DNA of 64,000 bases from Gemmatimonadota bacterium (GCA_039586365.1 JBDHKN010000032.1:9773-73772), one strand, 5' to 3'; counted from the stretch's first letter, positions 5,265 to 22,862 are shown. Made by a program: numbers and translations. Notes: generated by a model not told the origin, from the letters alone.

Positions 5265-6020
5265 ATGCCTCCTCCTCGCGTACCGGATCTGAGCCTGCCC
5301 AAGACGAGCAAGCCGTTCTTGGGGGGTACAGCTACGTCCATCACGGTACACGCTGCGCTGTTGATCGCGATCATATGGTCTGGTGGCCGGGCGTCTGACG
5401 AGCTATTCCGTGCTGGTGGTGGGGCCGGGCCATTGGGCGGCGGGGGCGGCGGCGGTTCCCAGTTCACCTACGTGGAGCTGCCAGCTTTTATAACCTCGCC
5501 CCGGGCCGAGCCTGAACCGCCGCGCCGGGCCAGAGACGTGCCCATTCCCAAGCCCCAACTCAGAGAGATTCCCAAAGAGACTCGGCCCCTCAATCTGCGT
5601 CCACCGACTGGGCCCATTGTAGCTACGATAAACCCTGGTCGGGGTGCCGGATCGGGCGATGGCTCGGGCATCGGGTCCGGATCCGGCAGCGGGGCGGGAA
5701 CCGGGCGAGGCACCGGCGTTGGTAGTGGTCAGGGACCTGGCACGGGTGGCTCGGGAGGCGCAGGGTTCGGACCGAGACTGCAACAGGCCCTGATTCCGCC
5801 GAGCGATTGGCCTGACGAGGTCAGAGGACAGGAATACAAGGTCCGGTTCTGGGTCGATGAGCAGGGCAGGGTGACCAGGGTGGAGGTGGAGCCTCGGATT
5901 CCGGATTCGGCCTACCGCAAGAAGTTCCTCGACAAGATGCGTGAATACGTCTTCTCACCGGCTCGCAGGAGTGACGGCACTGCGATCGCGGCGTCTGTAG
6001 AGATACAGATCTTGTTCTAG
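5265..6020 (+). CDS. TonB/TolA-like protein with Gly-rich linker
   Basis: TM with SITVH, Pro- and Gly-rich spacer, C-terminal VRFWVDEQGRV...FSPARRSDG resembling TonB_C. Confidence 0.7.
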   Translation: MPPPRVPDLSLPKTSKPFLGGTATSITVHAALLIAIIWSGGRASDELFRAGGGAGPLGGGGGGGSQFTYVELPAFITSPRAEPEPPRRARDVPIPKPQLREIPKETRPLNLRPPTGPIVATINPGRGAGSGDGSGIGSGSGSGAGTGRGTGVGSGQGPGTGGSGGAGFGPRLQQALIPPSDWPDEVRGQEYKVRFWVDEQGRVTRVEVEPRIPDSAYRKKFLDKMREYVFSPARRSDGTAIAASVEIQILF

Positions 6021-6931
6021 TGGTGACCCAGCTCCGCTGCCAGCGCGACAGCTCCACGAGCTGGATCAACCTCCCCCTCAGCACAACGCACCGCAGTAAT
6101 CCGCTCCCGGACGACGGCCAGCAGTTCGTGCCGGACCGGAGAGTCGCAACTCAGCAGTCTGCCGGAGAAGGCCAAGCCGGCAGGCCGGTGCTGCTCAGGA
6201 AATCGGTCCACCAAAGCTTCAATGTGTCGGGCCAGCTCGGCGGCCGCGGCCTGCACGAGCGCGTTGGCCACCGCGTCGCCCGCTCGTGCGGCTTCGCACA
6301 CAGTGTGTGCAATACCGGTGACAGCGGCGCGGTCGGGCGAGCGACCCGACTGGTTCAGTGCGGCGGCAGAATCCGACCCGGCGGTCAGATCGACTGAGTC
6401 GGTCAGTACCGTGCTCGGTCCGCATCCGTTTGCCGCCTGGGTGACGGCATCCAGTGCAGCCCTTCCGAGCGCGTAGCCGCTTCCCTGATCTCCGTACTGC
6501 CAGCCCAATCCTCCGACCCGCCAGATGCGACCTGCCGGATCGCGGGCATATGCGATCGAGCCGGAGCCGGCACAGATGACGATCCCAGGGCCGTGTCCGA
6601 AGCCGTCGTGAAGCGCGATCATACCGTCCGTGGTGATCTCGAGTGCCAACTCGCGTCCGAGTTCGGCCGCCAGCAGAGCGGAGAACTCGGTCCGGATATC
6701 CTGCCTTCCGGCGCCTGCAGCACCCACGACCACCGCATCGGGGAGGGTGGCCCCATGCCGTTGCAGCAACTGGTAGACAAGGTCGCCGACCAGCTTAGCC
6801 GAGGATCGAAGACTATCGGCTGCCAGGGCGGCTCCTGGTCCGGTCACACGCACGCAGGGCTGGAGCGATTCATCAGCGAGGGCGGCCTCCGTGTGCGACG
6901 CGCCGACATCGATTCCGATCAGGATGCTCAT
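6017..6931 (-). CDS. BadF/BadG/BcrA/BcrD-type N-acetylglucosamine/N-acetylmuramic acid kinase
   Basis: IGIDVGASHT, AGSGSIAY, GGLGWQYGDQGSGYALG. Start at ATG 6931 overlaps the upstream stop (ATGA). Confidence 0.85.
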   Translation of the reverse strand: MSILIGIDVGASHTEAALADESLQPCVRVTGPGAALAADSLRSSAKLVGDLVYQLLQRHGATLPDAVVVGAAGAGRQDIRTEFSALLAAELGRELALEITTDGMIALHDGFGHGPGIVICAGSGSIAYARDPAGRIWRVGGLGWQYGDQGSGYALGRAALDAVTQAANGCGPSTVLTDSVDLTAGSDSAAALNQSGRSPDRAAVTGIAHTVCEAARAGDAVANALVQAAAAELARHIEALVDRFPEQHRPAGLAFSGRLLSCDSPVRHELLAVVRERITAVRCAEGEVDPARGAVALAAELGHH

Positions 6932-8382
6932 GGTGGCCGAGGATCTTGGCGGAGCCGGCTGGAAAGAAGCCCAGTGCCGACTGCGATGGCCGTGCCGAGC
7001 GGTACGTACCAGGGCCAAGCCAGGTCTCCGAACGGACCCGGTTTGACCAGGACGACCACAAGCATGGTCACGGTAGCCACGACAACCGCAGCAATTGCGT
7101 CTGACTGCCGTACACGGTGGGACAGGCCGGCAAGGATGTATGTCCCGAGCAGGCCGCCATAGGTGATCGAGGCCACTGAGAGGGCCAGCTCCACAACTGG
7201 TTGTTCGGTAGACCTGAACGATAGTGCACCGCAGGTCAAAACCACTGCCCATCCCAAAGTGGCCCAGCGACCTACGGCAAGCAGATGGCGAGAATCTCGC
7301 CGACCGGTGAGTGGAGCATAGAAGTCGTGGGTCGCGGCAGAGGCGAGAGAATTGAGGGATGAGCTGACGGTGCTCATTGCCGCGGCGAAGATGCCGGCAA
7401 TGACCAGGCCGGAGAGGCCCGCCGGGAGTCGGTCCACTACGAAAGTCGGGAACAGTTCGTCCCCAGCGAGTGACGGATTGTCTGCACCGGCTGCCCAGAT
7501 GAACGTGCCGACCAGTAGGAACACCGCAAATTGGACTATGACCAGTATCCCGGACCCAACCAGAGCGCGCCGCGCATGACTCAGCGTCTTGGTTGCGAGT
7601 AGACGCTGAACGATGAGGTGATCTGTTCCGTGGGATGCTGCAGACAACAGAGCCCCGCCGAGCAGACCTCCTGCCAATGTGTACGTGCGCGAAAAAGAGA
7701 TCCGCCAGTCTATGGTTGTCAGCTTCCCGGCATTCGATGCTTGAGCAATAGCGTCACCGAGGCCGCCGGCCAGACCCACAGCCACAATGATCGCCGCCAA
7801 TCCCGCAACCACATATAGTCCCATCTGCATCACATCGACCCAAATCACCGCCTTGATCCCCCCCGCCCACGTGTATGCCACGGTGGCTACGGCGACAATG
7901 ATCACGCACCAGGGAATCGATAGCCCGGTGACGATGTGCAAGGGGATTGCCGTCGCGAAGACGCGTACGCTGTCTCCCAAGGCCCGTATGGACATGAACA
8001 CGCCCGAGGCGACCTTACGGGTGGGCTTCCCGAACCTCGTTTCAAGGCGAGCATAAGCCGTCTCCTGGTCGCCACTGAAGTAGCCCGGCAGCAACCATAG
8101 AGCGACGGCGATGCGGCCTATCAAGTAGCCGAAGGGGAGTTGGAGGAAACTCAGGTCGCCCCGTGCAGCGACCCCAGGTATCGAGATCACCGTGAGTGCG
8201 GAGGTCTCGGTGGCGACGATCGAGAGCATCACGGCCCACCACGGAATCCCGTGGCGACCCAGGAAATAGTCAGCCGCGTCAAGCTGCTTGCGAGTGAAAT
8301 AGAGCCCGATGGCGAAGACCACTGCGAAATAGGCCGCCATGACCCCCATGTCTACGCCGTTCACACTAGGCTCCCCGAGCAC
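6928..8382 (-). CDS. Sodium:solute symporter (SSS), probably amino-sugar uptake
   Basis: Polytopic; SIVATETSALT, GGIKAVIWVD, AAAMSTVSSSLNS. True start may be GTG 8364. Confidence 0.9.
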   Translation of the reverse strand: MLGEPSVNGVDMGVMAAYFAVVFAIGLYFTRKQLDAADYFLGRHGIPWWAVMLSIVATETSALTVISIPGVAARGDLSFLQLPFGYLIGRIAVALWLLPGYFSGDQETAYARLETRFGKPTRKVASGVFMSIRALGDSVRVFATAIPLHIVTGLSIPWCVIIVAVATVAYTWAGGIKAVIWVDVMQMGLYVVAGLAAIIVAVGLAGGLGDAIAQASNAGKLTTIDWRISFSRTYTLAGGLLGGALLSAASHGTDHLIVQRLLATKTLSHARRALVGSGILVIVQFAVFLLVGTFIWAAGADNPSLAGDELFPTFVVDRLPAGLSGLVIAGIFAAAMSTVSSSLNSLASAATHDFYAPLTGRRDSRHLLAVGRWATLGWAVVLTCGALSFRSTEQPVVELALSVASITYGGLLGTYILAGLSHRVRQSDAIAAVVVATVTMLVVVLVKPGPFGDLAWPWYVPLGTAIAVGTGLLSSRLRQDPRPP

Positions 8383-8446
8383 AACGAGAAACGGCCTGCG
8401 AGAGTCGCAGGCCGTCCGTCAGTCAGAGATGGCAGCAAGAAAAGCG

Positions 8447-8809
8447 TCAGGCGGAAAACGACTCGCCGCACCCGCACCCGCCTGTCGCGTTCGGGTTGGT
8501 GAACGTGAAACCGGAAGCCTGCATGGTAGAGACGTAATCGATCTCGGTTCCCTGCAGATATTGACCGCTGAATGCGTCTACGAATACCCGCAAGCCGTCT
8601 TGCTCCACGACAATGTCGTCGTCCAAAGCCCGCTCTTCGATGTTGAGCCCGTATTTGAATCCCGAGCAGCCACCAGGCATTACCGTTACCCTCAACCCGG
8701 CGGTCTCAGGCGGAACGTCCTCTTGCTCGATAAAGCTGCGCACTTGCTCGAGGGCCTTTTCCGTCAAAGTAATCCTGACTGTCGTCTCAGGCCGCTGTGT
8801 TGTACTCAT
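8447..8809 (-). CDS. A-type Fe-S carrier (HesB/IscA/ErpA family)
   Basis: GGCSGFKY and NPNATGGCGCGESF; ATG 8809 preceded by GGAGG. Confidence 0.95.
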   Translation of the reverse strand: MSTTQRPETTVRITLTEKALEQVRSFIEQEDVPPETAGLRVTVMPGGCSGFKYGLNIEERALDDDIVVEQDGLRVFVDAFSGQYLQGTEIDYVSTMQASGFTFTNPNATGGCGCGESFSA

Positions 8810-8920
8810 CCAGAAAACCTCCATTTTTGCTGCCGCAACATAGACGGGGGCGGAATTCGTGTCAACGCGCGACGAAGTAAGCTATTTCCAAACAACGATT
8901 TGGCCTGGATTGTTCCGGCA

Positions 8921-9038
8921 AGGGCGGTAACAGGCGGTCCAAGGCGGAAGAGGGTGGTAAGAAGGCTGTAGATGGCGCTAACGGGCTGTGACGGGGCCGA
9001 CCTTACCGCCCGTGTGGTGTGGTGCTGGGTTACCGCCC
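8921..9038. repeat. Intergenic GGCGGTAA-type ~10-nt periodic repeats with inverted copies
   Basis: agggcggtaa caggcggtcc aaggcggaag agggtggtaa, then ttaccgccc at ~9003 and ~9030. Confidence 0.65.
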
Positions 9039-9048
9039 TGGGGTGGAG

Positions 9049-10224
9049 TTATGGCGGTGGGGTAAGAGCTGCCACCACCGAATCCGCCAACATGCCTCGT
9101 ATCTGCCTAATCGCGTTGTTGTCTCGAGTCGGGTGTACTCGGTTCGTGAGGAGGATGATGAATAACTCTCGCTGCGGATCGACCCACAGACTTGTGCCTG
9201 TGAAACCTGTGTGACCGAAACTATCGGCTGACATCGTGGTGCCCGCGGAGCTTCCTTCGCGGCTTGGCGTATCCCACCCGAGAGCCCGGGTTGAACCTTC
9301 CGGGCCGGGCTGGCGGTGCACGAACTCGCGCACGATTTCGGCCGGAATATAGAGTGGGCTGTCAGGTGTTAGGCGGCCGTGGTATGCGTCCAGCATCCAT
9401 TGGGCGAATCGTGCGAGGTCCGGTGCGATGCTGAAGAGTCCAGCGTGCGCGGACACGCCTCCAAGGCGGACTGCGTTCTCGTCGTGGACCTCTCCCCTGA
9501 CTACTCGGCCTCGCCAGGGATCATCCTCTGTCGGTGCGATGCGGTCGAGCCAGTGCTGCGGCGGGAGGTAGCGCGTACGGTCCATGCCGAGTGGACCAAA
9601 AACACGCTCTTGTAGGATCACATCCAGCGACCGACCCGCTATTCGCTCCACAGCCAGGCCAAGCGTGATCGCGCCCAAATCCGAGTAGCGATATGCCTCG
9701 CCGGGTTGGTTTTCGAGCCGAGCTGCCAAGACGCTATCGACCGCCTCGTCGCGCGTAGCGGTCTCTAGGTGGAGCGGTCGCCACGCGGGCAGTCCTGAGC
9801 TGTGGGTGAGTAGATGCCTGACCAGCACGCGGTCCTTGTCGGGGCCCCTGAACCGCGGAACGTAATCGGCCACCGGCCTATTCAGGTCGATCTTTCCCTC
9901 AGCTGCCAACAGCATCACAGCGGTGGTCAGGCCAATCACCTTGGTCAGGCTGGCAAGATCGTACACTGTGCTGTCGGTGACTGGTCGGGCATCATCGTCA
10001 CCGTAGTGGCCGGCCGCCGTCGCGTAGACAACCCGTCCCTTGAATCCGACTTCGAGTACCGCACCTGGGAACGCGTGGGAGTCAACGGCGGATTGCAGTA
10101 ACCGCTGGACTCCTGCGAAACGGGTGGAGTCTGCCTGTCGCGCGGAGGCTCGCGCGACAGGGAGCGGTGAGCAGACCGTAGAGGTAGCAAGCGCCGCAAC
10201 CGAAAGTAGAACCGTGAGTCTCAC
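9049..10224 (-). CDS. Beta-lactamase-family serine hydrolase (AmiE-like), secreted
   Basis: SxxK (LASLTK), LLTHSSG, YSD, FGHTGFTG, LTNRVHP. GTG 10224 overlaps the GH3 stop. Confidence 0.9.
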   Translation of the reverse strand: MRLTVLLSVAALATSTVCSPLPVARASARQADSTRFAGVQRLLQSAVDSHAFPGAVLEVGFKGRVVYATAAGHYGDDDARPVTDSTVYDLASLTKVIGLTTAVMLLAAEGKIDLNRPVADYVPRFRGPDKDRVLVRHLLTHSSGLPAWRPLHLETATRDEAVDSVLAARLENQPGEAYRYSDLGAITLGLAVERIAGRSLDVILQERVFGPLGMDRTRYLPPQHWLDRIAPTEDDPWRGRVVRGEVHDENAVRLGGVSAHAGLFSIAPDLARFAQWMLDAYHGRLTPDSPLYIPAEIVREFVHRQPGPEGSTRALGWDTPSREGSSAGTTMSADSFGHTGFTGTSLWVDPQRELFIILLTNRVHPTRDNNAIRQIRGMLADSVVAALTPPP

Positions 10225-12011
10225 CGGCGTGGCAGGTTGAGGCCGAATCCCCGGGGATATACCTCGGACAGCGTGATCGGGAGTCGGCCCGAGATCGGCG
10301 CTCCTCCCGCAAGCGCGCGAGACACCGCCAGCTCCGTGGCCAGGAAGTCGCTCCAAGCAATGAGGTACCCACCCGTGAAGCCCGCGACTTGGTTCAGGAG
10401 GTAAGGGCTGCCCAGAGAAGCCAGGATGGTCGGCTTGGTCTTATCCGTCTCGAGTATGAGTGACGCCAGTGAGTCGGGCAGCTGTATGTGTCCCCGCCCG
10501 GCGATGAATCGCACACCCATGGCAAATACTACCCGCGGGTTCTGGTTGATCACGACGCGAGCCGAATCGTAGGAAGCCGAGCCGGATGCAGGGTAGAGCC
10601 GAAACGGGTTCACGGTGTCGCCCAAAGCGCGCAGTTCCCCGATTAGCGTGTTGCCTATCGTGAGGTTGGTTTCCTCGGCATACAGAATCACAGCGGTGCG
10701 CTGCCGTGACTGTCGCAGGTCCCGGAGTGGTCCTTCCTGGATGAGTGTCAGTGAGCGAGCTGCTATGTCATTGGCGCTCTGCTGGAACCCCATTTGGCCC
10801 ACCACAACTGGAATGCTGTCCAAGCTCACCGTTCTGCGACGGAACAGGCCTGCTTCAACCTTGAGCCGGAGGACCCGCTCAACGGACCGATCCAACCGCT
10901 CCAGGGATATGCGAGCAGAGTCCACGGCGACCACCATCGCCTCGATTGCAGCCGTGGGGTCCGCCGGGATAAGCAGCATGTCATTGCCGGCCAGGAAAGC
11001 CCGCACCACGCTCTCTGCAGCTCCGTACTTGCCGACTATGGCTCCCATGCTGAGCGCGTCGGTAAAGACCAAACCATCGAACCCGAGTGAGTCCCTGAGC
11101 ACGTCGGTCGTCACGATGCTTGAGAATGTGGCTGGAAGGGGATCTGCTCCCCCATCGATGCACGGCAAGGCCACGTGCGCTGTCATGACGGCCGTGACCC
11201 CTGCCTCAATCGCAGCTCGAAACGGGACTAACTCGAGCGTGTCCAGGCGATCCCAACACGCGGGTACAACCGGGAGGTCGATGTGCGAATCCGATCTTGT
11301 ATCACCGTGCCCGGGAAAGTGCTTGACAGTGGTAAGGAGCCCGTTGTCGCTGGCGCCGCGCACGTAGGCCGCAACTAGTCTGCTCACCGCGGCAGGGTCT
11401 TCCCCAAAAGACCTCGTGTTGATGATCGGATTCGCAGGATTGTTGTTGACATCTGCAACGGGCGAGAAGGTCATGTGTATGCCTGCAGCCCGTGCTTCTA
11501 GTGCGGTTACTCGGCCAAGTTCATATGCGTCGCTCGTGTCGCCCGTCGCGCCGATGGCCATCGCCATGGGGAACGACGTGCCTCCGACGAGGCGCATGCC
11601 CGATCCCCACTCCAGGTCGGCTGCTATGAGTAGTGGTAAGGCTGACCGCTCTTGCAGCGAGTTGAGCTTGGCCGTTGCATCGAGCGGTGAACCGATCGAG
11701 ATGATGATGCCGCCGACTCCAAGCGAGTCCACCCAGTACGCGATTCGGTCGAACTCCTCTGACTTGAGCGACGTGTAGTGTCCCATGAGCCAAGGCATGA
11801 CGAGTTGACCGACTTTTTCGCGGGTGGTGAGGGACTCGAGGATCGAGTCGATAGCCGCTGGCCGAGCACGCGGTGGAAGCGTGATCTCGGGGAGGTTGGC
11901 ACGAGGCGTCGGGGCCACCGGCGGTAGCTCTGCAGTCTCAACCGCGGCGCGACTGCAGGATCCCACCAGGGACGCCACACACAGAGATGCCATGAGTAGA
12001 CGTTGTTGCAT
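10221..12011 (-). CDS. nagZ: GH3 beta-N-acetylglucosaminidase, probable lipoprotein
   Basis: KHFPGHGDTRSDSH, RSFGED, TDALSM; signal ending LVGSC. Confidence 0.9.
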   Translation of the reverse strand: MQQRLLMASLCVASLVGSCSRAAVETAELPPVAPTPRANLPEITLPPRARPAAIDSILESLTTREKVGQLVMPWLMGHYTSLKSEEFDRIAYWVDSLGVGGIIISIGSPLDATAKLNSLQERSALPLLIAADLEWGSGMRLVGGTSFPMAMAIGATGDTSDAYELGRVTALEARAAGIHMTFSPVADVNNNPANPIINTRSFGEDPAAVSRLVAAYVRGASDNGLLTTVKHFPGHGDTRSDSHIDLPVVPACWDRLDTLELVPFRAAIEAGVTAVMTAHVALPCIDGGADPLPATFSSIVTTDVLRDSLGFDGLVFTDALSMGAIVGKYGAAESVVRAFLAGNDMLLIPADPTAAIEAMVVAVDSARISLERLDRSVERVLRLKVEAGLFRRRTVSLDSIPVVVGQMGFQQSANDIAARSLTLIQEGPLRDLRQSRQRTAVILYAEETNLTIGNTLIGELRALGDTVNPFRLYPASGSASYDSARVVINQNPRVVFAMGVRFIAGRGHIQLPDSLASLILETDKTKPTILASLGSPYLLNQVAGFTGGYLIAWSDFLATELAVSRALAGGAPISGRLPITLSEVYPRGFGLNLPRR

Positions 12012-13591: not shown

Positions 13592-15112
13592 TCAATCCTC
13601 AATCTTCCAGATAGTATCCAGTACTGTGCCGTCCACCCATTTGACCACCGCGACGGGCTGATCTGTCAACCTCGGTGGTTCCGGTTTGCCTCCTACGATG
13701 GTCTCGACCTCCTGCTTGATCTCGGCGATTGATCGAATAGGCAGGTCCGATGTACGAACCCGATCCAGTAGGTCCTCGCGCCGGGGATTGATCGCGATCC
13801 CACGTTCAGTGACCACTACATCGATCAATTCGCTCGGCCCGCTCAACGTAGCGACTTCGTCTACTATCACAGGTATCCGGTCGCGGAACGACGGTATTGC
13901 CAGGACGGAACAGCCCGCGAACAGGCAATTCTGCCACCCACCGATCCCGTGAAGCAGCACTCCATCGGAGTGGGTGTTGACGTTGGCATTGAAGTCGAGA
14001 TCTACTTCAGTGGCACCGAGGACCGAGACGTCGACCATGGTCGCAAAGTTGCCCTTACCATGATAGTTGTAAGACGTGAACGGTGAAGTGGCAATGTGCC
14101 GCGGGTCTGAAGCGATCGAGGCTACACCAGCGAGGTCGAATGTCTGCCCGTCGAGGATGTAGTCAGTGAGTCCCTCCTTGAGCAGCTCCACGAGGTACTG
14201 AGTCGAGCCACCCCGGACAAACCTCGCCTTAACACCGGCATCCTTCATCATGCCCTTCAGGAACTGCACGAACGCGAGAGCGATTCCTCCGGCTCCTGCC
14301 TGGAATGAGAACCCCTCCCGCATTATTCCGGCCTCTCGAATGAACCGAGCGACGTACTCCGCTATCAGAAGCCTGTCCGGGCTCCGAGTAATTTGCGTCG
14401 TCCCGGACACGATCAGCGAAGGATCACCGATCGACTCGATTTCCACCACGTAGTCCACGTTGTTACCCTGGATCTGCCACGGGTCGGCGTAGATGGAATC
14501 GGCGAGAGCGAATCCGAGGGATCCACAAGCTGAAGGACCGTGTGACCCATCGGCATTGCCAAACGGATCTGCCGTCGGGGCGGCAATCACTGCGATGTCG
14601 ATGTTGACATCACCATCTTGGATTGCTTGCCACCTACCACCGTGTGACCGCAGCACTCCCAGACCTCGCATCTTCCCGTGGGACGTGTATTCACCCAGCG
14701 GGCCGTTCATACTTCCTTCTATGTGATGTACGACGCCACTGTCCATCAATTCGATCACCGGCTCGTGACAAGGAAACGAGGCGCTGGGAAACCACATCAG
14801 GTCCTTGACACCCAGCTCGGCCGCGGCCTGCAACGGTGCCAGGGCAACTCTGTCACCATTTCGCAGGTGGTGATGGGTTGAAATCACCATCCCGTCGCTC
14901 AAACCGCAGCGCTCGAGTGCAGTCTTCAAGTCGGGAACCCGCTTGTCACCGTTGTCGGCATAGTGATGACTCGACTGAATCGGTGGACCGTGTTTGGTGC
15001 CCGTTGGCTCGTGGCCTCCCACTCCCTGGAACGGGATCTGTTGCTGCCCATTCACTATCCTGGGGACTCTCCTGCCAACGGCGTTTCTCGAGAAGTCCTT
15101 AGCGCCGCTCAT
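13592..15112 (-). CDS. citF: Citrate lyase alpha subunit / CoA-transferase family (apparent short in-frame deletion)
   Basis: ISTHHHLRNGD, LRSHGGR, CGSLGFA, LGATEVD, VVVTERGIAINP, DGTVLD. Confidence 0.88.
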   Translation of the reverse strand: MSGAKDFSRNAVGRRVPRIVNGQQQIPFQGVGGHEPTGTKHGPPIQSSHHYADNGDKRVPDLKTALERCGLSDGMVISTHHHLRNGDRVALAPLQAAAELGVKDLMWFPSASFPCHEPVIELMDSGVVHHIEGSMNGPLGEYTSHGKMRGLGVLRSHGGRWQAIQDGDVNIDIAVIAAPTADPFGNADGSHGPSACGSLGFALADSIYADPWQIQGNNVDYVVEIESIGDPSLIVSGTTQITRSPDRLLIAEYVARFIREAGIMREGFSFQAGAGGIALAFVQFLKGMMKDAGVKARFVRGGSTQYLVELLKEGLTDYILDGQTFDLAGVASIASDPRHIATSPFTSYNYHGKGNFATMVDVSVLGATEVDLDFNANVNTHSDGVLLHGIGGWQNCLFAGCSVLAIPSFRDRIPVIVDEVATLSGPSELIDVVVTERGIAINPRREDLLDRVRTSDLPIRSIAEIKQEVETIVGGKPEPPRLTDQPVAVVKWVDGTVLDTIWKIED

Positions 15113-16352
15113 CGACTTCCTCCCACTGCTGTGACATCCTCGTCCTGAACCTTACCGGCGCGCCTTGCTGACTCCACGAGTCTCTGCGCCCGCAGGACCA
15201 CTGGGGAATCGATCATCTTGGTGCCGAGACTCACTACTCCTAATCCCTTCTGCTGCGCTTCGTCAAAGGCAGTAACGATCCTGCGGGCCTGTCGGATCTC
15301 TTCGTCTGAAGGTGTGAACGCTTCGTGTATCGCTGCAATCTGACGTGGGTGAATGCAGCCCATACCCTCAAACCCGAGTGCTTGGGAGCGACTTCCCCAC
15401 TCCCTGAGCCCGTCCAAATCTCCTACGTCCCCGAAGACCGAGTCGATGGCCTGTACCCCGGCTGCCTTGGCGGCATTGACCAACCGCGCGCGGGCGTAGA
15501 GGGACTCCGTACCCTCGCTAGTTTTCCGTACGCCGAGGTCAGCGGTGTAATCTTCCAGGCCGATCGTAAGGCCAACTATCGTGTTGGCCGCGGCCGCGAT
15601 GGCGAAGGCGTGCTCTATTCCAAGGGCGGATTCGATAATCGGCATCAACCAGATCGGCCCCTCGATTTCCGCCTGGTTCAGGATCTGGCTGATTCTCTCC
15701 TCGACCGCGGCACCTGATCGGGCGACTCCACCTTGGGGATCAGGATCAGATCCGGCGCCTCCGGGACCACCTGGTCCAGATCCTCGTAGCCGAGTGGTAG
15801 TTGGTTGATGCGCACCATCCGCTCGGCGCCCTTGAAGTCAACGCATCTGAGAGCGTTTCTGACGACGATCCGCGCTGCGTCCTTCTCCGTAGGATGTACA
15901 GAGTCCTCGAGGTCCAGGATGATTCCGTCGGGTCCGTGGAGTCCAGCATTGACCATGAATTTTGGTTCGTTGCCGGGTAGGTAGAGGCGGGAGCGTCGCA
16001 GCCGGTCGCGTGCAGTAGGGCCCGTACGGGTGATAGTGCACTCGGGTCGCGCGTCTCCGGACAGCCCGGCTCGGGTCAGGGCAGCTTCGATCCTGGCAGC
16101 AATCGCGAACGGAAGAGCGCCCTTGTCATCGATCTCGATACGGCCGTGCCTAAGCCCGAACGATTGCGCCAGACTCCCAGCGAGCTGCCTCAGGGAACTC
16201 CCGTAAAATGCCGCGACCTTGGAGACAATGTGGATCTCGAGCCCTCCGAATTCCTCTACCTGTACCGCGACATGAAGGTCGGAGCGAACGTCGTCGCCCT
16301 TGCGGCCCGCTGCTCCTATTGCCCTGGCCGCCATGTGTGATTTCCTGGGCAT
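15109..16352 (-). pseudogene. CitD(ACP)-CitE(lyase) fusion split by a frameshift near 15710
   Basis: N-terminal ACP-like RSD...IDDKGAL...AR, then RRSRLYLPGN, LDLEDSV, PKVES. The second frame continues AVEERISQ...MPIIESALG, GLEDYTADLG, CIHPRQI, MIDSPV. One base appears missing after GAT CAG GTG. Confidence 0.82.
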
Positions 16353-16367
16353 GCCGAAGCTCTCCCC

Positions 16368-17552
16368 TCAGCCAAGTTGCTCGATGATCGCGTCCGTCAA
16401 CTGCGTCGTCGTCGCCGCTCCCTTTGCGACCACATCTGGACCGCCGACCAGACGCATCATGTCGTATGCTCGCACCTTGCATGCGGCGACCACCGCGGCC
16501 ACGGCGTCACGGACCCGCTTCGCCTTGTCCGATTCCTCTAGGTGGTCCAACAGCATCGCTGCGCTCAGGATCATCGCGATTGGATTCACGATGGGTGGAT
16601 CCAAGTTCTCGTATTTGGGAGCCGAACCGTGGGTAGGTTCGAACACGGCAACATCGTCACCGATGTTGCCGGAGCAGGCGAATCCCAGCCCACCGACCAG
16701 CCCGGCAAACGCATCGGACACGATGTCGCCGAACATATTCCCCGCCACGATGACACCGTAGTCTTCGGGGTTCTTGGTGAGCCACATCATCTGGGCGTCG
16801 ATGTTCGTGGACCACAGCTGAATGTCCGGGTAATCCCGCTGCACCGCGCGGGCCACTTCTTCCATCATTCCTGACGTCTCGCGCAATACGTTGGGTTTCT
16901 CGCAAACCGTGACCGACCGATAGCCGTGTTTCTTGGCGTACTTGAACGCCGCCGTCAGGATTCTCCGGCAGGCATTGCGTGTGAACAAGCGCAACGAGAT
17001 CGCCACGTCCTCGTTCGGCACGGTGGCAAACGACTTGTGCTTGGGATGAGTGGCTATTGCATCGCGTACCTGCTGGGGAGGATTGGTCCACTCTATGCCG
17101 CAGTAGAGGCCTTCAGTGTTCTGACGGAAGATCACGGCATCCACCTCGGGTTCCTCGCGGCCCCCGTCGGCGGTCTGGCGGATGAAGTTGAGTGGATTGC
17201 CCTTGAATGACCGGCAGGGCCGGATGCAGATATCCAAATTGAACAGCTGCCGCATCCCCACTATTGGGCTGAAGTAGCTGTAACCCTTGTCCCGCAGTTC
17301 CGGTTTCAGTTCTGCGGCAGCCTGCTGCTTCGGTTTGGACGTGATGGCACCGAAGAGACCCAACTTGTGTTGCTTCAGCAGCGCGATAGTCCTGTCGGGC
17401 AGCGGATTGCCTTCGTTTATCCAAAAGTCCCACCCGATATCTGCATGGACATACTCAGCGCCAAAACCGACCGCCTCCAACACGCGGACCGCTTCTGGAA
17501 GTACGATCTTGCCGATGCCGTCGCCGGGCATCGAGACAATAGTGTGAGTCAT
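16368..17552 (-). CDS. Isocitrate/isopropylmalate/homoisocitrate dehydrogenase family
   Basis: PGDGIG, FGAITS, RQNTEGLY, KPNV, NMFGDIVSD, FEPTHGSAPK, NPIAMILS. Confidence 0.92.
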   Translation of the reverse strand: MTHTIVSMPGDGIGKIVLPEAVRVLEAVGFGAEYVHADIGWDFWINEGNPLPDRTIALLKQHKLGLFGAITSKPKQQAAAELKPELRDKGYSYFSPIVGMRQLFNLDICIRPCRSFKGNPLNFIRQTADGGREEPEVDAVIFRQNTEGLYCGIEWTNPPQQVRDAIATHPKHKSFATVPNEDVAISLRLFTRNACRRILTAAFKYAKKHGYRSVTVCEKPNVLRETSGMMEEVARAVQRDYPDIQLWSTNIDAQMMWLTKNPEDYGVIVAGNMFGDIVSDAFAGLVGGLGFACSGNIGDDVAVFEPTHGSAPKYENLDPPIVNPIAMILSAAMLLDHLEESDKAKRVRDAVAAVVAACKVRAYDMMRLVGGPDVVAKGAATTTQLTDAIIEQLG

Positions 17553-17599
17553 GTTGTATTGATATCCTCTTGCTCTCTCGTTACGTGGCGAGTTCCCAA

Positions 17600-17627
17600 C
17601 ACTCAATGGTCAATCGTCAATCGTCAA
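17600..17627. repeat. Short TCGTCAA heptamer array overlapping the hydratase stop codon
   Basis: cactcaa tggtcaa tcgtcaa tcgtcaa. Confidence 0.7.
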
Positions 17628-19499
17628 AAGCCAAACTCCTCACCGCGGTATGTTACGGTGCTCACCGCGAAGTCGATGTCTAGCTGATCTCCTGGGATGA
17701 TGGTCAACTGTTTCGCTGCAACCGCATCGCCAAGCTGCCGCTTCACAGCGGCAACTAGCTCGGGGCACTCGATACAGATGAAGCCATTGTTGTAGGCATT
17801 GCGCAAGTACGTTTGGGAGAAACTCCCGGCGATCACTAAAGCGATGCCTTTGGCCTGTAGTGCGGTTACCGCCTGTTCGCGGCTGGAGCCCGTGCCGAAG
17901 TTCCAAGTGCCAACCAAGATGTCACCCTTGGTAGTCCTGCCGACAAACTCTGGGTCATAGTTTTCCATGACCACCTGGGCCATCTGCTCCCATGTCACTT
18001 CGTCGCGGGTGTAGTACTTCTTGTCGTAGATCCCATCCGTGTTCAGGTTGTCCTGTGGCAGGAAGATCAAACAAGATCAAACGGCCGTGAATGCTGTCGG
18101 GGAAGCCAGGCTGGATCTCGACAGTCTCGCCGGCCGTGCGAGCTGGCGCGTGGTCGGTTATGCGGCGCTCAGGGCGGCTGCCGTCCGAAGGCCAGGGACC
18201 TGTGATGTAGCCGGCCACAGCCGACGCTGCCACGACAGCGGGACTGGCCAGGTAAACCTGCGCGTCGCGGGATCCCATCCGTCCCTTGAAGTTGCGATTG
18301 GTGGCCGAGATTCCCACTTCACCGGCCTCGAGCAGCCCGGCACCGAGACCGATGCACGGGCCGCAGCCGGCTGGAAGCGGCTGGGCTCCAGCATCGAGCA
18401 ATGCATCCCATGCTCCTGAGTGCCGTGACGCCTCCTCAACCTCTTTACTCGCGGCTGATACATAGAGCTGCACACCAGCAGCCACTTTCTTGCCCTTGAT
18501 CACGCCGGCGGCTGCCTCCAGGTCTTCCATGCGGCTGTTGACACAGGACACGATATAAGCCTTCTGGATCGCGACCTTGTCTTGCTCGATGTCGGCGAGC
18601 GACCGCATGACTTGAACGGTGTCCGGCCCGGAGACGTGCGGACTCAATTGGCCCAGGTCCAGCACGATCTCGCTGGCGTAAGTTGCGTCGGCGTCAGGCG
18701 CCGGGGGGTTCGCGAGCCAGGAAGCGATCTCCTGGTCTGTATATCGAACGGGACCCTGAGCCTGTAGTACTTTGTTACGGTGGCGGAGATAGTCCACCGT
18801 AACCTCATCCACCGGGAACCAACCGACCAGCGCACCCCACTCGGTCGTCATGTTCGAAATCGAAAACCGCGCATCCATACTGAGGCTGGCAATTCCCGGC
18901 CCCGTGAACTCCACGGCCGCGTTCAGCACTTCACCCTGGTTGTAGATACCGCAGAGGGTAATGATCACGTCCTTACCGGTCACACCCTCGCGCAGCTCTC
19001 CCTCAAGAACCACTTTCACGGACCGCGGGATCTGCCACCAGAACTCCCCAGTAGCCCAGATGGCCGCCGCGTCCGTGCGAACAACCGGTGTACCGAGTGC
19101 TCCCAGAGCCCCGTACATGTTGGAGTGGGAATCAGATGCCACCACCAATGCCCCGGGCACAACGTATCCTTGGGAGACCATGATCTGGTGTCCGATTCCG
19201 GTGCCGGCGGGGTAGAAATCGATGCCGTGCGCTCTGGCGAAATCCTCGATCTTGTTGTACTTGGCAAGATTGGTCTCTGAAGTATTCTGAATCTCGTGGT
19301 CCAGTGCGAACACGGGTTGCGACGGGTCAAGAACTCTGGTCGCACCGATCGCATTGAATTTCGTTATCACTGCGGCGGTATTGTCGTGCGTCATGACGTG
19401 CCGCGGGCGCAGTGAAACCACGTCACCGGCCCGCAGGGGCCTGCTGGGGCCTTCTGTCACATGCATGTGGGCGATCTTCTCTACTATGTTCTCACCCAT
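17624..19499 (-). pseudogene. Single-chain homoaconitase-like Fe-S hydratase (large + swivel domains), frameshifted by a 10-bp duplication
   Basis: MTHDN, DSHSNMYG, SCVNSR, GCGPCIG, TNRNFKGRMG, then DNLNTDGIY and NFGTGSSRE in another frame. AAGATCAAAC is duplicated at 18063-18082; removing one copy gives a single 621-aa ORF. Confidence 0.88.
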
Positions 19500-19518
19500 T
19501 CTAGTCTCCTAGGCCCTG

Positions 19519-20895
19519 TTACTTGTCGGCCTTGCAGAGGTCCATCAGCTCCGAGATCGAGCCGAGTTGCTCCAAGTTCCACACCGCCTGTTTGAGGCGT
19601 GCCCGAGACCGATCAGTTAGTACTGGAGCCGCCAACGCATCGAATTTCTCCTCAACCTCCTGGTCGGTCAGCGGATTGCGGGGGTCACCCTTGGGGAAGT
19701 CCAATTGCTTTGGGATCTCGCGACCGTCAGTTGTCTTGATCGTGACGATAACGCGCTGGAGCTTGGGGAACACCGCCTCGATCTCCGGATCCGCTACCAC
19801 ATGGACCTTGTTCAGCTGGGCTCGGATCAGTGGATCCATGATCTTTTCAGGCTCGAATTGCGCCGGGGTCACCTGGCGATCCGCAATCGCAGCCGCAATC
19901 ACATAGGGGAGGCTGTGGTCGGCGGTCTCTTTGGACCGCGGGTCGTACTTGGAGGGATCCGCCAAGATATCCGCGGCCCGGGCCAGCGACCGGATGTGTA
20001 CTCGCTCAATCTGTTCGGGTGCCAGGTCGTTTTCTCTCACGATGTCCAGCACGGCTGAAATCGGTGCATGTGTTAGGCCCTCGGTTGGGAATGCCTTCAT
20101 ACTGCAGCGTTCGATGCGCCAGGATTCACCCAGGTCATCGACCAGCACGTTCAGGCGCCATTCGGGTCCGAAGCAGTGAGTGAGTCCTTCTTTGCCGTCT
20201 ATCACGTGCTCTGGTCCGGTGTACCCTTTCTCGGCCAGCAGTGCTGCCATCACCCCACTTTGTGTGGCCAGGGGATCCACCGTGTTCTTCATCATGGTGA
20301 GTTTGCCGGCTGTAACAGCTCCCAGTGTCGCGTGGCGCGCAGCCGAGATTCCGATGGCGTGCTGCATCTTGTCCCACGATAGTCCCAGCATCCGACTGGC
20401 TACGATGGGCGAGACGAACGCGGTCAGCGTTGCGTGGTGCCAGCCGCGCTCTCTGATTCCTGGGAACGCGGCCTCACACAGCCGCATCTCGAATTCATGA
20501 CCCAGGACTATTCCCAGTATGAGATCCTTACCCGTTCCGCCCGCTCGCTCACCGCAGGCGATCGCCGCGGGAATGATGTCTGAGGGGTGGGAGGGATCCT
20601 GCTGCCAATAGATGTCGTTGTAGTCCATCACGCGGACCATCAGTGCGTTGGCCAGAGCGGCCGATACCGGGTCCGTCTTTCTGCCGCTGCCGAGGATGGT
20701 GGCCGGCCCCGACCCGCCGATCTCCTGCAATACCTCCAGGGCAATGCGGGCGTCTTCCTGACGGAATCCGCCCAGGGCGCAGCCCAGCGAGTCGAGCAAG
20801 TAACGGCGCGCTTCGTGGACCGCGCGCTCGCTGAGCTGTTCATAATTGAGTTGTGCGGCCCACCGGGCCATCACGGCCGTAATCGTCTCGGGCAT
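19519..20895 (-). CDS. MmgE/PrpD family dehydratase (2-methylcitrate dehydratase-like)
   Basis: RVMDYND, SHPSDII, GWHH, ETADHSLPY, PKGDPRNP. Confidence 0.92.
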   Translation of the reverse strand: MPETITAVMARWAAQLNYEQLSERAVHEARRYLLDSLGCALGGFRQEDARIALEVLQEIGGSGPATILGSGRKTDPVSAALANALMVRVMDYNDIYWQQDPSHPSDIIPAAIACGERAGGTGKDLILGIVLGHEFEMRLCEAAFPGIRERGWHHATLTAFVSPIVASRMLGLSWDKMQHAIGISAARHATLGAVTAGKLTMMKNTVDPLATQSGVMAALLAEKGYTGPEHVIDGKEGLTHCFGPEWRLNVLVDDLGESWRIERCSMKAFPTEGLTHAPISAVLDIVRENDLAPEQIERVHIRSLARAADILADPSKYDPRSKETADHSLPYVIAAAIADRQVTPAQFEPEKIMDPLIRAQLNKVHVVADPEIEAVFPKLQRVIVTIKTTDGREIPKQLDFPKGDPRNPLTDQEVEEKFDALAAPVLTDRSRARLKQAVWNLEQLGSISELMDLCKADK

Positions 20896-20937
20896 CTAGG
20901 ACTCTCCTGCGGCTTGGAGCCAGCGGCCTTGCCGCGG

Positions 20938-21480
20938 TCAAGCAGCCAAATTCTTGAATGGTAGATAGCTCATGAAATCGGCGTGGTGCACGATCGTTGC
21001 TTCAGTGCTGCGTTTCACCAGGTCGCCCTCGCCAGCATGCGCCGCGATGATGTGGCACACCTGTTCAGGAACACCACACGACATGGCGAGCGCCACACCG
21101 GTGAAGGGGTGTCTCAGGCTCTTGCCCCGCTCACTCTGCACAACTTTCCCGTCGACCTTCTCGTATTCCAACAGCTTCCCCACGTCGGCCAGTATCGCGC
21201 CGGCGATCACTACGTCTAGGTCTATCTCGAGCGACTTCCCCAAAAACTGCTGCATGGCCTGTGCTGCTGGTTTGGCAATGTGTACCACACAGCGTTTGTG
21301 CTCCATGAAGGTGGCGGGGCAATCGGGCACCAACAGGGTGAAGGGTATCTCGTCCAGATCGCCGGGATCGAGGGGGCTCGCTGCGAACGCCTTTATCCAA
21401 GTTTGAGTGACCTGTTCCCGCAGCTCGTGGTTCTCAATCCACTCCAGTTCGGGCCACAGGCGCTCCACTGCTGCACGCAT
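20938..21480 (-). CDS. HD-domain-like protein with A-D in place of the H-D motif
   Basis: EH...ILADVGKLLEY...RHP...HIIAAH...VHHAD. Confidence 0.75.
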   Translation of the reverse strand: MRAAVERLWPELEWIENHELREQVTQTWIKAFAASPLDPGDLDEIPFTLLVPDCPATFMEHKRCVVHIAKPAAQAMQQFLGKSLEIDLDVVIAGAILADVGKLLEYEKVDGKVVQSERGKSLRHPFTGVALAMSCGVPEQVCHIIAAHAGEGDLVKRSTEATIVHHADFMSYLPFKNLAA

Positions 21481-21614: not shown

Positions 21615-22862
21615 GTGGATATGCAAGTGATGATTACACGCCAACCGTTCGCGGCTGGTTTCAGACTGCTTGTGGCGTTGATCTGTCTCGTCGCATGTAC
21701 TGATCGGATATCTCAAGGGCAGACGGTGCGACCTGGAATTGACGTGGTGTTGGCCGATTCAATCCATCTGGTCGCAGGAAGACGCGTTGGGCTGCTGACC
21801 AACCAGACTGGGGTGGATCGTTCCGGGGTGAGTGATGTGGATCGTCTGTTGCAGGCCGGTGTGGAACTCACTGCCTTGTTCAGCCCCGAGCATGGTTTCC
21901 GCGGGGTGCTTGATCAACCGATTGTCGATCACGGCACCGACCCTGCCACGGGACTACCGATTTACAGCCTCTATGGCGAGCATCAGGCGCCCACTGTGGA
22001 GATGCTGGCAATGATCGACGTGTTGGTGGTCGATCTGCAGGACATAGGTGCCCGGACGTACACGTACATCTCCACGACACTGCTTGCCCTGCGTGCCGCC
22101 GCTGTGGGGGGAGTGCCGGTCGTGGTGCTCGACCGGCCCAATCCGATCGGCGGCCAGCAAATTCAGGGGCCCGGACGCGACCAAGGTTTCTCTTCTGAGG
22201 TGGGCATGCTCCCGGTCCCGCTGCGCCACGGGATGACGATCGGCGAGCTGGTAAAGTTCGGCAACGATGTGCTGGAGATTGGAGCCGACCTCACCGTGGT
22301 TCCGGCCCACGGTTGGCGGCGGGACCTTTGGTACGACCAGACCGGTCTCCCCTGGGTGCGCCCGTCACTCAACATGCCCGACCTGGAGAGCGCCACCCAC
22401 TACCCGGGGACTGTACTGTTTGAGGGCACCAACCTCTCGGTGGGTCGCGGTACACCGATCGCATTCCAGGTTCTCGGAGCACCTTGGCTGGAGCCGAGCG
22501 ACATCTTGGCGGCAGTTGGCCAGGAGCCAGGGGTGGAGCTGTCGGATACCGTAGTTGCGCCACACGCTCCCAGTGATGGCAAGTACCCCGACATTGCGCT
22601 GCCCGCGCTGCGTTTCCGGGTGATCGACCGAGCGTCCTACGATCCGACCCGACTGGCCGTCCGGCTGCTGGGGGCGATATCACAGCTCCATCCCGACTCG
22701 TTTGAGATCAGGAACGCCCGATACTTCGACAACCGGGCCGGCTCAGCGGCGATCCGTGACTGGCTCGGCGGCGAGCCCCCACGCGCTGAGATCTGGCGGT
22801 TGTGGGACGCGGACCTCTCCGAGTTCCGGAGAGCGCGGCAACCCCACCTCATCTACAAGTGA
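21615..22862 (+). CDS. namZ: DUF1343/YbbC exo-beta-N-acetylmuramidase
   Basis: GLLTNQTG, FSPEHG, SLYG, DLQDIGARTYTY, LDRPNP, RHGMTIGEL, FEGTNLSVGRGT. Confidence 0.92.
   Translation: MDMQVMITRQPFAAGFRLLVALICLVACTDRISQGQTVRPGIDVVLADSIHLVAGRRVGLLTNQTGVDRSGVSDVDRLLQAGVELTALFSPEHGFRGVLDQPIVDHGTDPATGLPIYSLYGEHQAPTVEMLAMIDVLVVDLQDIGARTYTYISTTLLALRAAAVGGVPVVVLDRPNPIGGQQIQGPGRDQGFSSEVGMLPVPLRHGMTIGELVKFGNDVLEIGADLTVVPAHGWRRDLWYDQTGLPWVRPSLNMPDLESATHYPGTVLFEGTNLSVGRGTPIAFQVLGAPWLEPSDILAAVGQEPGVELSDTVVAPHAPSDGKYPDIALPALRFRVIDRASYDPTRLAVRLLGAISQLHPDSFEIRNARYFDNRAGSAAIRDWLGGEPPRAEIWRLWDADLSEFRRARQPHLIYK

Follow-up and report, generated by a model that had tools for sequence, protein, structure and literature searches.

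We describe a six-gene operon at positions 13592-21480, on the minus strand, of a 64,000-nucleotide stretch of DNA from a Gemmatimonadota bacterium (GCA_039586365.1, JBDHKN010000032.1:9773-73772), hereafter the window. In order of transcription, the genes encode an HD-fold metalloprotein, an MmgE/PrpD-family enzyme, a Lys4/LysF-type single-chain homoaconitase, a β-decarboxylating dehydrogenase, a CitD-like acyl carrier protein (ACP) domain fused to a CitE-type acyl-thioester lyase, and a CitF-type acyl transferase. Our analysis suggests that these enzymes probably handle the homocitrate series, whichever way the pathway runs. The particular form put forward here, with slightly more doubt than belief, is a catabolic, CO2-fixing route from 2-oxoadipate to 2-oxoglutarate and acetate via a predicted (S)-homocitrate. 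More tentative again is the broader proposal that the operon represents an undescribed, widespread and O2-independent CO2-fixing form of lysine catabolism, in effect the upper fungal lysine pathway reversed via (S)-homocitrate.

Conservation and exchange of parts

Homoaconitase relatives were drawn from GTDB (the best 80 of at least 597, a set that leans to close relatives). The conservation survey covers 97 loci, which reduce to 92 distinct loci and to 66 with enough flank. All six genes occur in the window order in 53 of these 66, so the string is not a product of chance, and the six genes are one conserved operon. Seven more loci comprise the PrpD and homoaconitase genes alone, and four are other partial or variant forms (the remaining two are considered below). 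The preliminary description of this DNA had reported six closely spaced, co-oriented genes that should co-occur in other genomes, both of which hold; its title named five, the sixth being the HD-fold protein. In this assembly the genes are read as eight open reading frames (ORFs), and the intergenic gaps from the HD gene to CitF are 42, 19, 71, 15 and -4 nt.

Full operons were found in Gemmatimonadota, Acidobacteriota, Latescibacterota, Rhodothermales and Eisenbacteria, and the homoaconitase is present in 18 of 301 Gemmatimonadota and 14 of 201 Acidobacteriota genomes sampled. Plasmids yielded zero Lys4-type matches and one LeuCD-like match (35%). No transporter, regulator or seventh gene proved to be conserved next to the CitDEF-type operon, and neighbors that recur do so within close kin only; the flank scan covered 71 proteins next to complete operons (drawn from 122 cluster representatives) and 22 taken from loci with a partial operon or a homoaconitase alone. 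A promoter and terminator scan remained at chance level, and a look-up for expression listed no RNA dataset that contains the operon.

Versions of the module with exchanged parts are seen in a sister clade of the dehydrogenase. In one genome (G022), CitDEF gives way to a citryl-CoA lyase, which scores above its cut-off, and a succinyl-CoA-ligase-like pair; the pair matched SucC/SucD-type models below cut-off, and CcsA and CcsB are labels by analogy. Genes beside the dehydrogenase in 80 metagenome loci, many of them short, encode PrpD (30), HD (23), homoaconitase-like (21), citryl-CoA lyase (13) and CitF (5) proteins. One locus (L255) has CitD-E-F, HD, homoaconitase, dehydrogenase and PrpD genes in an order that differs from the window, two (L228, L235) combine citryl-CoA lyase and a divergent CitF, and others (L259, L285, L290, L292 and more) have a split HacAB-like pair instead of the Lys4-type enzyme. 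The dehydrogenase is alone in many sister-clade loci, some with ample flank, and homoaconitase-dehydrogenase and PrpD-homoaconitase fusion proteins also exist. The core that recurs comprises activating enzyme, lyase, PrpD-fold enzyme, homoaconitase-type hydratase, dehydrogenase and HD protein. Parts are exchanged while the predicted chemistry is kept, which we count in favor of the proposed catabolic route.

Smaller assemblages were also observed. A two-gene PrpD-like plus Lys4-type unit, with no HD, dehydrogenase or lyase gene nearby, occurs in other Acidobacteriota and further lineages (L106, L107, L108, L111, L112, L113, L115, L202, L204). Elsewhere a lone Lys4-type homoaconitase is followed directly by 2-oxoacid:ferredoxin oxidoreductase subunits (L205:11053-14009). 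One full operon (L089; 6638-7870, 16179-17672) is immediately preceded by a co-oriented class I/II aminotransferase gene and followed, on the opposite strand, by a CitMHS-family transporter gene.

Properties of the encoded enzymes

The homoaconitase (17624..19499) is the only operon protein that passes its family tests. Its N-terminal ORF alone scores 585.1 bits against the fungal homoaconitase model TIGR00139 (cut-off 529.9), and named Lys4/LysF proteins of fungi share 53-60% of its residues. A quick tree of 52 rows, which contained HacA/LeuC-like and other aconitase-family rows and left out AcnA, AcnB and E. coli LeuC, places fungal Lys4 and the operon homoaconitases in one 44-row clade (96% support in the SH-like approximate likelihood ratio test, SH-aLRT). 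Relatives of about 650 residues combine PF00330 with a C-terminal swivel domain (PF00694) and possess the Fe-S motifs SCVNSR and CGPCIG. The Lys4/LysF type had previously been proposed from the motifs MTHDN, DSHSNMYG and SCVNSR; these were confirmed at residues 36, 123 and 318, and score, identity and clade all bear the assignment out. According to PMC3556520, fungal homoaconitases interconvert only homoaconitate and homoisocitrate.

The MmgE/PrpD-family protein (19519..20895; 458 residues; PF03972 and PF19305) had been named PrpD. It is not an orthologue of 2-methylcitrate dehydratase: the three PrpD equivalog models, with cut-offs of 950, 575 and 458, gave 90.6, 88.3 and 65.4 bits. By sequence, it is a separate MmgE/PrpD subfamily, and its reaction is consequently a matter of prediction; we predict a (de)hydratase interconverting (S)-homocitrate and cis-homoaconitate. 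Residues D91, H103, H154, K203 and D326-H327 agree with E. coli PrpD in all 78 aligned sequences. PMC6789909 describes the conserved active-site set of the family as Asp/His/His/Lys. In IDS epimerase and B. subtilis IRG1, the corresponding alignment position shows no D-H motif.

The dehydrogenase (16368..17552; 394 residues; PF00180; HICDH-like substrate motif SPIV.MR and NADP-type motif HGSAPKY) has as its best NCBIfam model the homoisocitrate dehydrogenase (HICDH) AksF, below cut-off. It scores 263.9, 251.4 and 137.3 bits against NF040626, NF040619 and NF040855 (cut-offs 540, 500 and 680); these models are archaeal, and a fungal Lys12 model was not among the matches. All 74 operon dehydrogenases possess an S-P-I-V substrate loop, where the genome's own isocitrate dehydrogenase (IDH) reads S-I-N-V, and S-P-I recurs in an HICDH-LysK fusion protein (P0325) and in a protein named homoisocitrate dehydrogenase. 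HGSAP is followed by K-Y in 74/74 operon dehydrogenases, in 80/80 sister-clade loci and in the genome's NADP-type IDH, and by D-I in 5/5 HICDH-like references and T. thermophilus HICDH. From work on E. coli IDH and isopropylmalate dehydrogenase (IPMDH), we take K-Y to denote NADP and D-I to denote NAD. The operon enzymes form their own 36-row clade (98% SH-aLRT), with an inserted loop.

The CitD-CitE fusion (15109..16352; PF06857 and PF03328) matches TIGR01608 and TIGR01588, both under cut-off, and is a single ORF of 400-449 codons in 58 of 74 loci. CitF (13592..15112; 506 residues; PF04223) scores 434.7 bits against TIGR01584 (cut-off 501.45). The CitE portion is 36-38% and CitF 37% identical to the E. 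coli proteins. In 54 of the 58 fusions the ACP motif reads R-S-D where E. coli CitD has S-G-D, so that Arg aligns with Ser14, presumably the acceptor serine of E. coli CitD, and a conserved Ser lies one residue on. The ACP domain gave no PDB match. CitG and CitX (PF01874, PF03802) were found in 0/5 carrier genomes, and E. coli CitC, CitG and CitX had zero tblastn matches in this genome, which is 86% complete and whose closest named relatives are Gemmatimonadota, and none in the 97 loci. As acyl carrier, the enzymes probably use either free CoA or an ACP primed in an unconventional way.

The HD protein (20938..21480; 180 residues) scores 36.6 bits against TIGR00277 (cut-off 27.6) and has A-D in place of the HD motif. 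D99, H61, H124, H148, H165, H166 and D168 are invariant in 71/71 aligned sequences, and position 98 is Ala in 69/71 and never His; an H-D doublet occurs in 2 of 14 motif matches from the sister clade. Its structural model (predicted local distance difference test score, pLDDT, 85.6) best matches YhaM (E 5.9e-5), then other HD proteins, and fold and Atlas searches returned generic HD proteins only. We regard it as probably a metal-dependent hydrolase with a repair or accessory function. That it primes the ACP is disfavored, since the ligase variant contains the HD gene but lacks an ACP. Six proteins (P0262, P0266, P0271, P0272, P0280, P0323), named in Allofrancisella, fuse a sister-clade dehydrogenase to a MoCF_biosynth (CinA-like) domain, which may be comparable to the HD protein if both are partners for nucleotide repair.

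Predicted route, direction and alternatives

In the direction of cleavage, the dehydrogenase would use NADPH and CO2 to convert 2-oxoadipate to homoisocitrate, from which the Lys4-type enzyme would form cis-homoaconitate. The MmgE/PrpD enzyme would hydrate this on the face closed to aconitases, giving (S)-homocitrate; CitF would then transfer the thioester from acetyl to homocitrate, freeing acetate, and CitE would split the (S)-homocitryl thioester into 2-oxoglutarate and an acetyl thioester. The likely feed would be lysine, via lysine 6-aminotransferase and then piperideine-6-carboxylate (P6C) dehydrogenase, and the gain would be a C5 intermediate of the tricarboxylic acid (TCA) cycle from lysine, together with a sink for reducing power.

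The stereochemistry may account for the combination of genes. The thioesters handled by lyases of the CitE family and of the citrate synthase fold, (3S)-citryl among them, are S-configured; homocitrate synthase makes (R)-homocitrate. As both lyase folds are S-specific, (S)-homocitrate would be needed, which AcnA should not make and a PrpD-fold enzyme could. This need would explain why the PrpD-fold gene travels with the Lys4-type enzyme and lyase despite the presence of AcnA. By descriptor bookkeeping only, the arrangement of these thioesters carried over to C3 of homocitrate takes the label (S). (S)-Homocitrate also shares its C3 geometry with (2S,3S)-2-methylcitrate, the substrate of PrpD. 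PMC3556520 and PMC5690661 describe aconitases as catalyzing trans-eliminations only and PrpD as performing the syn-elimination needed by (2S,3S)-methylcitrate, and PMC12290011 adds (S)-citramalyl-CoA lyase as a further enzyme of an S-configured thioester. Literature searches for the operon or pathway, homocitryl, homocitrate lyase and S-homocitrate found no description, with subscription journals mostly outside coverage, and look-ups on the stereochemical and lysine aminotransferase points returned nothing.

The operon is not the cell's TCA or methylcitrate set. This genome encodes citrate synthase, AcnA and a separate NADP-type IDH, all on other contigs; among the 18 Gemmatimonadota carriers (301 genomes sampled, 283 of them non-carriers), a citrate synthase match was found in 18, one as fragments only, and an AcnA-size aconitase in 17. 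E. coli PrpB, AceA, AceB and YdcJ had no match in the 86% complete genome, and the PrpC query matched only citrate synthase (26%). The preliminary description is upheld in part. Genes that it listed as absent from the window are missing where tested, with CitC, CitG, CitX and PrpB lacking a tblastn match genome-wide, and the canonical citrate synthase, aconitase and IDH, for which it had suggested a search, lie off the operon. Its view of a self-contained unit for a citrate analogue is supported by the hydratase type, the co-occurrence and these canonical enzymes elsewhere, and fails as to the identity of PrpD. Neither of the outcomes that it named as refuting its view was seen in these sequence comparisons.

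That description left the direction open, and the evidence now leans to cleavage. ATP-using ligases favor cleavage, and the CitF version of the reaction lies near equilibrium, so its direction may depend on conditions. The grounds for cleavage are the ATP-ligase variant, the NADP-type motif, the lysine-catabolic markers, the lack of a link to LysX and the neighbors of two variant loci. Lysine 6-aminotransferase is found in 16/18 Gemmatimonadota carriers and 9/283 non-carriers, P6C dehydrogenase in 16/18 and 52/283, and one or other in 18/18 carriers. LysX is above cut-off in 2/18 carriers and 28/283 non-carriers (30/301 in total). The G022 variant operon is adjoined by an Lrp-like regulator, a P6C dehydrogenase (above cut-off) and a class III aminotransferase, and the gene directly after the dehydrogenase in L290 has as its best PDB match PH1688 (E 2.6e-63), which we take to be a lysine 6-dehydrogenase.

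A number of findings weigh against the catabolic route, either in general or by favoring the readings set out below. The Gemmatimonadota genomes counted are kin, so the association with lysine markers is overstated, and Acidobacteriota show no such association: among 201 genomes, lysine 6-aminotransferase occurs in 1/7 operon carriers and 72/194 others (the 72 includes the unpublished genome G329), P6C dehydrogenase in 4/7 and 64/194, and three carriers have neither. No recurring lysine-catabolic gene was found beside the CitDEF-type operon, both synteny links coming from the ligase variant. Two of the 66 loci lack the PrpD gene only and retain the lyase. The use of NADP also fits an oxidative supply of NADPH. 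This genome additionally encodes SucA and a protein with a motif that we assume to be that of glutaryl-CoA dehydrogenase, so a canonical exit from 2-oxoadipate may exist. The best PDB match of the MmgE/PrpD protein is IDS epimerase (E 1.7e-40), 2-methylcitrate dehydratases following at E 1e-18 to 1e-7, and the dehydrogenase clade lies apart from both HICDH-like and IDH-like rows in a quick midpoint-rooted tree without biochemically characterized HICDH.

The last two findings would fit a different tricarboxylate, such as a longer homologue or a substituted acid, or an MmgE/PrpD protein acting as an epimerase or decarboxylase, with intermediates outside the homocitrate series. According to PMC12290011, epimerase, isomerase and decarboxylase members are known in the MmgE/PrpD family, most of which is uncharacterized; the inserted loop of the dehydrogenase, the unassigned reaction of the HD protein and the three Acidobacteriota carriers with neither marker point the same way. 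We nevertheless regard this reading as unlikely, given the 53-60% identity of the homoaconitase to fungal Lys4 and the D-H motif that the MmgE/PrpD protein shares with E. coli PrpD throughout and that IDS epimerase and B. subtilis IRG1 do not display.

Slightly less probable still is the same chemistry run forward, the lyase condensing acetate and 2-oxoglutarate to (S)-homocitrate, which would yield 2-oxoadipate and NADPH and replace homocitrate synthase in LysW-dependent lysine synthesis. Lys4 and HICDH are biosynthetic in fungi, and this genome contains a lysW-lysX-lysY-glutamine amidotransferase-like-lysZ-lysJ cluster (G000:C30:11430-16117, L161) with the signature F-I-T-NS and no homocitrate synthase beside it. 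This LysX signature is of the lysine type according to PMC12998189. A lysA match is present and dapB was not found; together, the lysine-type cluster and the missing dapB mean that the genome needs a source of 2-oxoadipate, a further point against catabolism. In another genome (G116), the operon locus (L030) lacks a PrpD gene, which would fit a biosynthetic role of its homoaconitase and dehydrogenase, and LysX-Y-Z-J is preceded by a homocitrate-synthase-like gene (G116:C17, L216:6757-12746; 311.6 bits, cut-off 413.55), a sign that part of the operon may run forward in some lineages. The forward direction is opposed by the distribution of LysX (two of the 18 carriers, and 28 LysX genomes without the operon), by LysA in 4/5 carriers tested, by the NAD-type D-I rather than K-Y of HICDH-like references, and by the ATP-ligase variant with its lysine-catabolic neighbors. 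Around five LysX clusters of non-carriers, the sequence retrieved showed neither a homocitrate synthase nor a hydratase or dehydrogenase gene next to the cluster, so the phylum appears to get aminoadipate from elsewhere. Two stretches of this genome (G000:C102:26954-29596, L163; C125:89574-91607, L164) encode a LeuA-like synthase without a regulatory domain that faces an IPMDH-like dehydrogenase and, apart from these, an aconitase with reversed domain order (swivel first). Perhaps aminoadipate comes from these genes, which are a candidate for a 2-oxo-acid elongation set of the phylum itself and might feed LysW.

A second citrate/isocitrate module, serving citrate fermentation or a reductive branch from 2-oxoglutarate to oxaloacetate and acetate through a non-canonical aconitase pair and an NADP-IDH, appears improbable. 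It would accommodate the CitD, CitE and CitF homologues, the above-cut-off citryl-CoA lyase of the variants, the NADP-type motif shared with the genome's IDH, the CitMHS-family transporter beside one locus and the slow hydration of cis-aconitate by E. coli PrpD reported in PMC6789909. Against this, carriers already possess AcnA, IDH and citrate synthase, both variants have a hydratase of the homoaconitase type, all 74 operon dehydrogenases have Ile where the IDH type has Asn, citrate requires no PrpD-type enzyme, all three lyase subunits miss the citrate lyase cut-offs, and no conserved transporter lies beside the operon. A variant 2-methylcitrate cycle for propionate, suggested by a PrpD-family gene adjoining an aconitase-family gene, is very improbable, since PrpB has no match, the sole PrpC-like match is citrate synthase, the PrpD-family protein is far under the PrpD cut-offs, and 2-methylisocitrate is a tertiary alcohol that a β-decarboxylating dehydrogenase cannot oxidize.

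The copy in the window, related pathways and implications

Relative to its homologs, the copy in the window has four lesions: a frame break in the homoaconitase near 18063-18072, at a 10-nt duplication; a homoaconitase C-terminus about 28 codons short; a frame break in CitE near 15709; and the loss of 15 conserved residues from CitF near 14482. Three of the four are absent from near-identical public contigs: the 10 extra homoaconitase bases are lacking in 2/4 runs, the base missing near 15709 is present in 3/4 runs, and the 45 bases spanning the CitF gap are present in one contig. The 3' end of the homoaconitase was bridged by none of the near-identical contigs listed. Since those contigs lack three of the lesions and no internal stops were found in other genes encountered in this genome, the lesions are private to the assembly or strain, and either assembly error or decay may be responsible. 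Imperfect short 7-nt repeats (GATTGAC-like, minus strand) occupy 17590-17626, right after the early stop of the homoaconitase.

The flanking genes, for an erythromycin-esterase-family lipoprotein and NamZ, are both on the opposite strand and apparently unrelated. Cell-wall recycling genes lie on both sides of the operon, at 6017-12011 and 21615-22862 (BadF-type kinase, sodium:solute symporter, beta-lactamase-fold hydrolase, GH3 and NamZ), so that the operon and esterase gene are placed as if inside a cell-wall recycling region.

Because defining features of citrate lyase, HICDH and PrpD were looked for and not found, the operon is not filed under any of them; by analogy, it would work like a reversed upper fungal lysine pathway with a citrate-lyase-type ending and the stereochemical logic of the methylcitrate cycle. 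With the upper α-aminoadipate pathway (Lys20/21, Aco1/Aco2 plus Lys4, and Lys12 in fungi; homocitrate synthase (HCS), HacAB and HICDH in Thermus), it shares the Lys4-type homoaconitase, the S-P-I motif and the supply of the homocitrate/homoaconitate step by a second enzyme. It differs in having a lyase and no homocitrate synthase, a second (de)hydratase of the MmgE/PrpD type rather than an aconitase, a predicted (S)- rather than (R)-homocitrate, an NADP-type motif and no association with LysX (2/18). Enterobacterial citrate lyase CitDEF (EC 4.1.3.6), to which clostridial citramalate lyase is homologous, has homologues of all three subunits in the operon, in D-E-F order; however, CitD is fused to CitE with Arg at the place of Ser14, CitC, CitG and CitX were not found, all three subunits are under family cut-offs, and the genes are linked to a homoaconitase and a dehydrogenase.

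In the 2-methylcitrate cycle (PrpC, PrpD, AcnB, PrpB), a PrpD-fold enzyme likewise links an S-configured citrate analogue to a cis-aconitate analogue, and an aconitase-family enzyme is confined to the iso-acid step. The operon has neither PrpC nor PrpB, its PrpD-like protein falls in a separate subfamily, and it ends in a dehydrogenase instead of isocitrate-lyase-type cleavage. The variant operon of G022 and metagenome loci, with its succinyl-CoA-ligase-like pair and citryl-CoA lyase, resembles CcsAB/Ccl of the reductive TCA cycle, in which reductive carboxylation, isomerization and cleavage follow in the same order; the variant is predicted to act one carbon higher, on 2-oxoadipate and not on 2-oxoglutarate. 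The HglS/YdcJ route of Pseudomonas putida and E. coli converts 2-oxoadipate to D-2-hydroxyglutarate and on to 2-oxoglutarate, HglS needing O2 and losing CO2. It reaches the same end product from lysine-derived 2-oxoadipate with unrelated enzymes, whereas the operon route would fix CO2 and release acetate, and YdcJ has no match in this genome.

If the catabolic route is correct, abundant uncultured soil and sediment bacteria would break down lysine or 2-oxoadipate without O2 and with fixation of CO2, gaining a TCA intermediate and not acetyl-CoA alone. It would involve three new activities, an NADPH-driven 2-oxoadipate carboxylase, a PrpD-fold (S)-homocitrate hydro-lyase and a homocitrate lyase without CitC, CitG or CitX, acting through the mirror image of a known metabolite, and would provide functions for a large MmgE/PrpD subfamily and for a citrate-lyase-like complex without maturation genes. 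Bio-based routes to adipate would also be concerned, since 2-oxoadipate would be reversibly connected with 2-oxoglutarate plus acetate. Overall, the operon would suggest a catabolic job for bacterial relatives of fungal Lys4 that are now annotated as lysine biosynthesis genes.

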